33,994 nt of DNA from a virus (taxonomy: Duplodnaviria > Heunggongvirae > Uroviricota > Caudoviricetes): positions 1-33,994 of IMG/VR virus record IMGVR_UViG_2802429242_000009; one strand, given 5' to 3'. How positions within the stretch are numbered: the stretch's first letter is position 1; every line of letters starts with the position of its first letter. Below are positions 24,001-27,000 of the stretch, piece after piece. Made by a program: the position numbers.

Positions 24001-27000
24001 TCTGTATCGCTTTAACCAAAATACCACCACTTGAGCGGCGAAATGACATGCCTCGCGGTAGTGGTAACAAAAGCGCGTTTACGTGGAATCGGTTTTACAT
24101 CGAGAAAGATGATCCGAGTACGTGAGGTGAATAAATGCCGATTCAGCAACTTCCGCTTATGAAAGGTGTCGGCAAAGACTTTCGGAACGCCGACTATATC
24201 GACTATCTGCCAGTGAATATGCTGGCTACACCAAAAGAAATCCTTAACAGCAGCGGATATCTTCGCTCATTCCCGGGCATTGCAAAACGTTCTGATGTGA
24301 ACGGTATATCGCGCGGCGTCGAGTACAACATGGCGCAGAGTGCTGTTTATCGCGTGTGTGGTGGCAAGCTGTATAAGGGCGAAAGTGAAGTCGGTGATGT
24401 TGCCGGAAGTGGTCGTGTATCAATGGCGCATGGTCGGACATCTCAGGCTGTAGGCGTTAATGGTCAACTGGTCGAGTATCGCTATGATGGCACGGTTAAA
24501 ACTGTCTCAAACTGGCCTACTGACAGCGGATTCACACAGTACGAGTTAGGTTCAGTTCGCGACATTACGCGCTTACGTGGGCGTTATGCGTGGTCAAAAG
24601 ACGGAACTGATTCATGGTTTATCACTGACCTTGAAGACGAATCACATCCTGACCGATACAGCGCACAATATCGTGCCGAGTCTCAGCCTGACGGTATTAT
24701 CGGCATCGGAACATGGCGAGACTTCATCGTCTGCTTTGGTTCATCGACGATTGAATATTTCTCCCTGACAGGTGCAACCACCGTTGGTGCCGCTTTGTAT
24801 GTCGCCCAGCCATCACTGATGGTGCAGAAAGGCATTGCCGGAACTTACTGCAAAACGCCGTTTGCTGATTCGTATGCGTTCATCAGCAATCCGGCAACTG
24901 GTGCGCCGTCTGTATACATCATCGGCTCCGGTCAGGTATCACCAATCGCCAGCGCGAGCATTGAGAAAATACTACGCTCCTACACTGCTGATGAACTGGC
25001 TGATGGCGTGATGGAATCGTTGCGGTTTGATGCTCATGAGTTGCTGATTATCCACCTTCCTCGCCATGTTCTCGTGTACGACGCATCTTCAAGCGCCAAT
25101 GGTCCGCAATGGTGTGTGCTGAAAACAGGCTTGTATGACGATGTGTACCGCGCTATCGACTTCATTTACGAAGGAAATCAGATAACGTGCGGCGATAAGC
25201 TGGAATCGGTGACCGGGAAATTGCAGTTCGATATCAGCAGTCAGTATGGGCTTCAACAGGAACACCTGCTGTTTACTCCACTGTTCAAAGCGGATAACGC
25301 CAGAGTGTTCGACCTTGAGGTTGAATCGTCAACTGGCGTTGCGCAGTATGCTGACCGCCTTTTTCTCTCTGCAACCACTGACGGCATCAATTACGGGCGT
25401 GAGCAGATGATTGAGCAGAATGAACCGTTCGTTTACGACAAACGCGTTTTGTGGAAGCGAGTAGGGCGCATCAGGAAAAATGTCGGCTTCAAATTGCGCG
25501 TTATCACGAAGTCACCTGTCACTCTGTCTGGCTGCCAGATAAGGATTGAGTAATGGCGGATTCGAATCTCAATGTGCCGATAATCATCCAGGCTACGCGG
25601 CTCGACACATCAGTCCTTCCACGCAATATCTTCTCGCAGTCATATCTGCTGTACGTTATCGCACAGGGTACTGATGTTGGTAACGTGGCGAACAAGGCCA
25701 ACGAGGCCGGACAGGGCGCTTATGACGCACAAGTCAGGAACGATGAGCAGGATGTGATTCTGGTCGATCACGAAATTCGACTGGCATCAGCTGAAGCGAA
25801 GATTCAGGACCACGAAACAAGGATCACTAACGCAGAATCGGCGATAGTCGGCCTTGATTCCCGATTAACGACAGCAGAAAACGATATTGATTATCTGACT
25901 GATGAAGTTATCGCCATTCAAAACACGCTTTCAGACCATGAAACGCGCATTGATGCTCTGGAGTATGCCACTACTCGCAAAAAGTCAGAGGTTGTTTACT
26001 CTGGCGTATCTGTAACCATCCCGACAGCGCCGACCAACCTTGTTAGCCTGCTGAAAACGCTCACGCCGTCATCCGGGACGTTGGCACCATTCTTCGACAC
26101 TGTTAACAACAAGATGGTTGTGTTCAACGAGAACAAAACCTTGTTCTTCAAGCTGTCGATCGTCGGGACGTGGCCCAGCGGAACCACCAACAGGTCAATG
26201 CAGCTAACATTCTCCGGTTCTGTCCCTGACACGCTGGTAAGAAGTCGCAACTCGGCGACAACAACCGATAACATCTTGTTAGCTACGTTCTTCAGCGTGG
26301 ATAAAGACGGCTTTCTTGCCACAAATGGCAGCACGTTAACCATTCAGTCAAATGGTGCGGCGTTTACTGCCACAACCATCAAGATAATCGCGGAGCAGTG
26401 ATGATTCAGTTCAAACCAACGCGAAACATCGACCTGATCGAAGCAGTAGGAAATCACCCTGACATTATCGCCGGGAGCAACAACGGTGATGGATACGACT
26501 ACAAACCTGATTGCCGTTACTTTGAGGTGAACGTGCACGGGCAGTTCGGCGGCATTGTTTACTATCAGGAGATTCAGCCGCTGACATTCGATTGCCACGC
26601 CATGTACCTGCCAGAGATTCGCGGCTTCAGCAAGGAAATCGGGCTGGCGTTCTGGCGATACATTCTGACTAACACCACCGTTCAGTGCGTCACATCGTTC
26701 GCTGCACGCAAATTCCGCCACGGGCAGATGTACTGCGCAATGATTGGCCTTAAGCGTGTAGGAACCATCAAGAAATACTTCAAAGGCGTGGATGACGTGA
26801 CGTTTTACAGCGCCACACGCGAAGAACTAATCGACTTCCTGAATCACGGGAGATAGCCATGTTATATGCATTTAAGCTGGGCAGAAAACTGCGCGGCGAG
26901 GAACCTTATTGCCCTGAAAAGGGTGGGAAAGGTGGCAGTTCTGATAAAAGCGCAAAGTATGCCGCAGAAGCTCAGAAGTATGCAGCAGACCTGCAAAATC

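Follow-up and report, generated by a model that had tools for sequence, protein, structure and literature searches.

The analysed window, a 33,994-nucleotide stretch of viral DNA, encodes a protein that we identify with near certainty as a tail needle of the Sf6 'knob' subtype, belonging to an Escherichia phage or prophage of the P22-like (Lederbergvirus-type) group. The gene (Table 1) is an intact open reading frame with an ATG start, and its translation contains both of the peptides quoted in the first-pass annotation ([25 protein letters not shown] and TIKIIAEQ). Its product matches the 'tail needle knob' family PHROG 1030 from end to end (E = 1.7e-133) and aligns colinearly and free of gaps over its full length with Sf6 gp9 (242/282 residues, 86% identity). 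To judge from its sequence, the protein carries every testable defining feature of an Sf6-type knob needle, and there is no evidence against this identification. The protein is already known and catalogued, and the first-pass annotation had called it correctly: NCBI and UniRef list the identical sequence, of an unclassified Escherichia sp., under the name 'tail needle knob protein' (WP_105287557.1), while an E. coli prophage protein of the same name, WP_000785555.1, is identical at 278 of the 282 positions (99%, the whole shaft allele described below included) and departs from the needle only at I10, T212, R230 and S234. Neither entry differs from it in any substantive way.

Of 5426 complete E. 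coli genomes, 903 contain a DNA match to the needle gene, and in 315 of these the match spans at least 80% of its length; the isolated phages that carry it include Sf6, N7, Louie, Kapi1 and phiKp_30, among others. In the survey of Leavitt et al. (PMC3741392), knob-type needles were encoded by 69 of 164 P22-like genomes, all from Escherichia or Shigella, with a knob divergence of at most 4.9%; the needle described here, which differs from Sf6 at 3 of its 143 knob positions (2.1%) and has an Escherichia host, fits within that range. Homologues of the knob domain, 35–58% identical, are also present in 276 phage records outside the P22-like group, among them Ackermannviridae/Vi01-like phages, the T4-like phages RB43 and 44RR2.8t, and phages of Vibrio and Aeromonas. 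Such homologues, which come without the gp26 plug and shaft, had already been reported (Leavitt et al., PMC3741392).

Table 1. Positions of the tail needle gene, its parts and its immediate neighbours in the window.
Feature	Position	Strand	Basis
gp10 homologue, tail hub ('head closure Hc3')	24135..25553	+	PF11134, 990.6 bits; PHROG 578
Shine–Dalgarno-like AAGGA	25541..25545	+	7 nt 5' of the needle ATG, read from the sequence
Tail needle knob gene (orthologue of Sf6 gene 9 / P22 gene 26)	25553..26401	+	ORF and translation, 282 aa plus stop
N-terminal virion-binding (plug) domain, aa 1–60	25553..25732	+	identity to Sf6, HK620 and P22
Coiled-coil shaft, aa 61–139	25733..25969	+	model helix, colinear with the Sf6 shaft
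Divergent shaft allele, aa 74–127	25772..25933	+	19/54 (35%) identical to Sf6
C-terminal knob, aa 140–282, predicted TNF-like jelly roll	25970..26398	+	identity to Sf6, 3RWN and 4K6B
gp14 homologue (DUF2824)	26401..26856	+	PF11039; PHROG 651; arrangement as Sf6 gene 10

Domain anatomy and the role of the knob

The needle shares with Sf6 gp9 (3RWN; in-situ model, PMC9728967) its length, its gene neighbourhood and a three-domain plan. The first of these domains is nearly invariant with respect to Sf6 gp9 (59/60 residues, 98%) and HK620 gp26 (57/60, 95%); the earlier description of the N-terminal ~60 residues as near-identical to P22 gp26 was overstated, the figure being 48/60 (80%). This domain also matches P22 gp26 in the in-situ structure 8EAP (chain B, E = 2.5e-27), and the gp26 family PHROG 1219 is matched over residues 1–146 (E = 8e-54). 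In homologous virions, the N-terminal domain acts as a plug inserted in the channel of the gp10 tail hub (PMC3741392, PMC9728967), and in Sf6 the plug is built from N-terminal helical hairpins that form a quasi-six-helix bundle (PMC9728967).

The shaft appears in an AlphaFold2 monomer model as a single, continuous helix (residues 61–140, with a pLDDT of 72–90 over residues 71–130). It includes the polar core motif NDEQD (N63–D67), which is invariant in a four-way alignment of the window protein, Sf6, P22 and HK620, and which coordinates Ca2+ in the coiled-coil core of P22 gp26 (PMC13580157). Given the length that it shares with Sf6, the shaft presumably comprises 11 heptads, and by analogy with its homologues it would be trimeric.

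The strongest matches lie in the C-terminal domain. Over residues 131–282, the needle is 98% identical to the knob crystal structures of Sf6 gp9 (3RWN, E = 2.6e-89) and of the HS1 prophage (4K6B, E = 7.6e-89), with three mismatches over 152 residues in each case (PDB sequence search), and the Pfam family PF16532 (Sf6-type phage tail needle knob) is matched over profile positions 2–175 of 175 with 358.8 bits, against a cut-off of 27. Within the knob proper, 140 of the 143 residues are identical to Sf6, the changes being A212T, S230R and S270A. The last of these is common to HS1 and the needle, against Sf6; the HS1 protein, on the other hand, has S at the position of D134 and is 317 residues long with 16 heptads (11 in Sf6), compared with the 282 residues of the needle. 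The L-glutamate-site residues listed by Leavitt et al. in 2013 (PMC3741392), namely E146, K200, S248 and D250, are all kept at the same positions as in Sf6, and the knob would carry three such sites per trimer.

The Sf6 and HS1 knobs are trimeric in crystals and adopt a TNF-like/adenovirus-knob-like fold (PMC3741392), and identity to these structures implies the same fold, and suggests the same trimeric state, for the needle. The AlphaFold2 model is a single-sequence monomer prediction of low confidence (mean pLDDT 58.3, with the N-terminal 67 residues below 50) that we used only for secondary structure and for a sanity-check fold search, so it is the sequence identity to the crystallised knobs that carries the evidence for the fold. 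Its beta strands at residues 144–281 are consistent with the beta-rich C-terminus noticed in the first pass, and the resemblance to knob-bearing needles proposed there is borne out by the crystal, PF16532 and PHROG 1030 matches. A Foldseek search with this low-confidence model returned 3RWN and 4K6B at the top, followed by BclA, TNF (Eiger), EDA (EDA-A1) and PRD1 P5; TNF-like and C1q-like jelly rolls are thus among the matches, in agreement with the published knob fold.

The needles of P22 and Sf6 project past the tailspikes, contact the cell surface and are lost before the ejection proteins and the DNA leave the virion, and the homologues and the literature suggest a similar course of events here. 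Three needle chains would assemble into a long coiled-coil fibre whose N-terminal ~60 residues would bind the gp10 tail-hub channel, plug it and hold the packaged DNA inside, with the 11-heptad shaft reaching past the tailspikes and the C-terminal 143 residues forming a trimeric, TNF-like knob that bears the L-glutamate sites. During infection, the needle would touch the outer membrane and then be expelled, and its loss would open the channel and allow the gp7, gp20 and gp16 homologue ejection proteins and the DNA to exit. The knob itself probably contributes to the penetration of the envelope by modulating its kinetics or through a mechanical action.

An alternative role is in secondary receptor binding, through which the knob would set or restrict the host range, for example by recognising an Escherichia/Shigella-specific outer-membrane target that triggers ejection. 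The TNF-like/adenovirus-knob-like fold is typical of receptor binders, knob needles among P22-like phages are confined to Escherichia and Shigella and were found in 0 of 48 Salmonella phages (PMC3741392), and T212 and R230 occur neither in Sf6 and HS1 nor in the 99%-identical E. coli copy. However, P22 equipped with the Sf6 or the HS1 knob shows normal titre and infectivity on Salmonella, a needle tipped with a foldon still works (virion infectivity 0.13 of the parent), which argues that no specific contact between tip and receptor is essential, and mutants of the L-glutamate site have no phenotype (PMC3741392). Moreover, the mutations that expand the host range of Sf6 all map to the tailspike, its OmpC-binding region included. 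We consider a receptor-binding knob improbable, and the influence on host range raised in the first-pass annotation is contradicted by the same Salmonella infections; by analogy with these phages, the tailspike, and not the knob, would be the host-range determinant.

For the kinetic or mechanical role that we favour, the published support is modest. K+ release by the hybrid carrying the HS1 knob proceeds at 40–70% of the wild-type rate, and a foldon tip likewise slows it, but a hybrid with the Sf6 shaft plus knob is normal (PMC3741392); the first-pass suggestion that the C-terminal domain may affect DNA delivery thus finds modest support in these experiments. Leavitt et al. concluded in 2013 that the role of the tip in delivery is kinetic or mechanical and not one of host range (PMC3741392), and a search of the newer literature on knob function brought up nothing that alters the picture of 2013 and 2022.

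Gene neighbourhood and integrity of the late region

The needle gene is embedded in a late region with the order portal, coat, gp4-like adaptor, gp10-like hub, needle, gp14-like protein, gp7-, gp20- and gp16-like ejection proteins, tailspike and acyltransferase. The genes follow one another as they do in Sf6, P22 and HK620, with the needle gene between the gp10 and gp14 homologues and upstream of the ejection genes, and the region is 94–97% identical over long stretches to phiKp_30, vB_EcoP-720R6, CUS-3, Sf101, Kapi1 and Sf6. Judged by this gene content, the window is evidently a P22-like (Lederbergvirus-type) phage or prophage. From portal to tailspike, every tested gene is an intact open reading frame with a full-length family match (Pfam/PHROG), and the acyltransferase frame 3' of the tailspike is intact as well; upstream, the list of open reading frames contains the terminase frames.

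At its 5' end, the needle ATG overlaps the TAA stop of the gp10 homologue (TAATG) and is preceded by the AAGGA motif, a putative ribosome-binding site; at its 3' end, the TGA stop overlaps the ATG of the gp14 homologue (TGATG). These two overlaps suggest that translation of the needle is coupled to that of both neighbours. Translational coupling is frequent in phage late operons. The mechanical list of open reading frames starts the gp14-like gene at GTG 26398; we examined the junction at 26398–26403, and the Sf6 annotation together with the TGATG overlap suggests that the real start is ATG 26401. Two minus-strand frames of the same list, at 25996–26343 and 26344–26721, were rejected as mechanical, with no family match and no annotation in Sf6 or E. 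coli records.

The gene could in principle be a non-functional relic in a defective prophage and not a working virion component, as many E. coli copies, the closest ones included, are found within degraded P22-like prophage remnants that contain pseudogenes and IS elements, a stop codon interrupts one copy, and more than 100 E. coli genomes hold such remnants (Leavitt et al., PMC3741392). Against this reading, the needle frame in the window is full length, the tested genes around it are undamaged and the coupling signals are kept at both needle junctions, so that we regard a relic as very unlikely and the needle as part of a complete virion module.

The closest needle copies in E. coli are those of two loci, L002 (4898–8025) and L006 (5244–16474). 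Their decay comprises a gp10 cut short, a needle frame interrupted by a stop, tailspikes disrupted by IS elements, and IS66/IS3 insertions, which agrees with the published retention of P22-like remnants mentioned above.

Several other features of the window were recorded. The tailspike (31018–32814, 598 aa) conserves the P22 head-binding domain at residues 1–113 (PF09008), while its receptor-binding body matches PHROG 38237, a family without a function label; the tailspike region is covered to at least 80% in only 6 of the 5426 complete E. coli genomes, at ~87% identity. Directly 3' of it lies an Acyltransferase_3 gene (32885–33994, 369 aa; PHROG 'O-acetyltransferase'), likely an O-antigen-modifying lysogenic-conversion gene, and two E. 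coli chromosomes from broiler chickens match the segment from the 3' end of the tailspike through the acyltransferase at 99.9% identity. The gp16-like ejection gene and the tailspike are separated by only ~165 bp (30853–31018), so a P22-style immI (ant/mnt/arc) or sieA block is absent from this interval; at the corresponding position, the E. coli prophage L006 has an Arc-family gene. Finally, adjacent, phage-borne tRNA-Asn(GTT) and tRNA-Thr(TGT) genes are located at 13795–13950, upstream of the lysis and late regions.

Comparison with P22 gp26 and the divergent shaft

As the P22 reference we used the 233-residue gp26 of P22virB-3, and set aside the record of P22 strain MSU, in which gene 26 is annotated at 639 nt. 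The needle is 49 residues longer than this reference, in line with the ~50 residues noted in the first pass. P22 gp26 (2POH, 3C9I) resembles it in the plug domain, the coiled-coil shaft, the Ca2+-binding NDEQD motif, the position of the gene between genes 10 and 14 and, by homology, the plugging role; the two differ in that P22 gp26 has a ~93-residue tip of its own (codons 141–233), whereas the needle ends in an unrelated knob of ~143 residues. Alignments to the P22 and HK620 gp26 structures cover only needle residues 1 to ~144–153 (HMMER, PDB), and past the shaft the four-way alignment retains scattered identities and large gaps between the needle and the P22 and HK620 proteins. Homology to the P22-type tip (gp26 residues 141–233), the subtype of P22, HK620 and epsilon34, was looked for in the needle C-terminus by HMMER and multiple alignment and was absent. 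The P22 gp26 tip is built of a triple beta-helix and, after it, an inverted coiled coil.

Because similarity to P22 gp26 ends at about residue 144, and the Sf6-type and P22-type C-termini are unrelated past the shaft, the C-terminus of the needle is best described as a domain replacement, a TNF-like knob for the P22 tip, and not as an extension of 50 residues. The first-pass annotation had thus rightly placed a different domain, not colinear with P22 gp26, where the P22 tip would be, while its wording of an extended domain has to be given up. A P22-type needle with a tip merely lengthened by ~50 residues and a C-terminus colinear with gp26 would agree with the difference in length and with the homologous N-terminus and shaft, but it is practically untenable in view of where the alignments to gp26 end, the gapped remainder beyond the shaft and the 98% identity of the C-terminal region to the unrelated Sf6 knob fold.

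The needle departs from Sf6 gp9 in the shaft, where residues 74–127 form a divergent allele (Table 1) of unchanged length, with only 37% identity to P22 as well. Across this segment, DNA identity to Sf6 is 50–62%, versus 88–98% in the flanks, and the flanking protein sequence is 97–100% identical to Sf6, a pattern that we read as a mosaic exchange inside the coiled coil, with a recombinant allele of equal heptad length. The allele is not new. Among complete E. coli genomes, 57 carry its 186-bp shaft segment, 20 of them at 99% identity or more and the other 37 at 95–99%, in every case within a gene bearing the annotation 'tail needle knob protein'; a single phage fragment record, ECO26.1 3-1, has it too. 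Shaft divergence among knob needles is likewise known, the longer HS1 shaft being 67% identical to that of Sf6 (PMC3741392).

We see a slim chance that this uncommon shaft allele, together with A212T and S230R, measurably alters the rate or the trigger threshold of DNA ejection on the unclassified Escherichia host. T212 and R230 are missing from Sf6 and HS1 as well as from the E. coli copy nearest to this one. If this reading were true, the pairing of shaft and knob would be a tuned functional unit, as hinted at by Leavitt et al., whose HS1-knob and Sf6 shaft-plus-knob hybrids differed (PMC3741392).

The correct label for the gene is "tail needle knob protein (Sf6 gp9 / P22 gp26 orthologue)", and the finding has little significance beyond annotation. 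The gene identifies the window as the DNA of a phage or prophage of the P22-like group with a complete virion module, and the mosaic shaft allele would provide, at most, one more natural combination of shaft and knob for experiments on the kinetics of DNA ejection.
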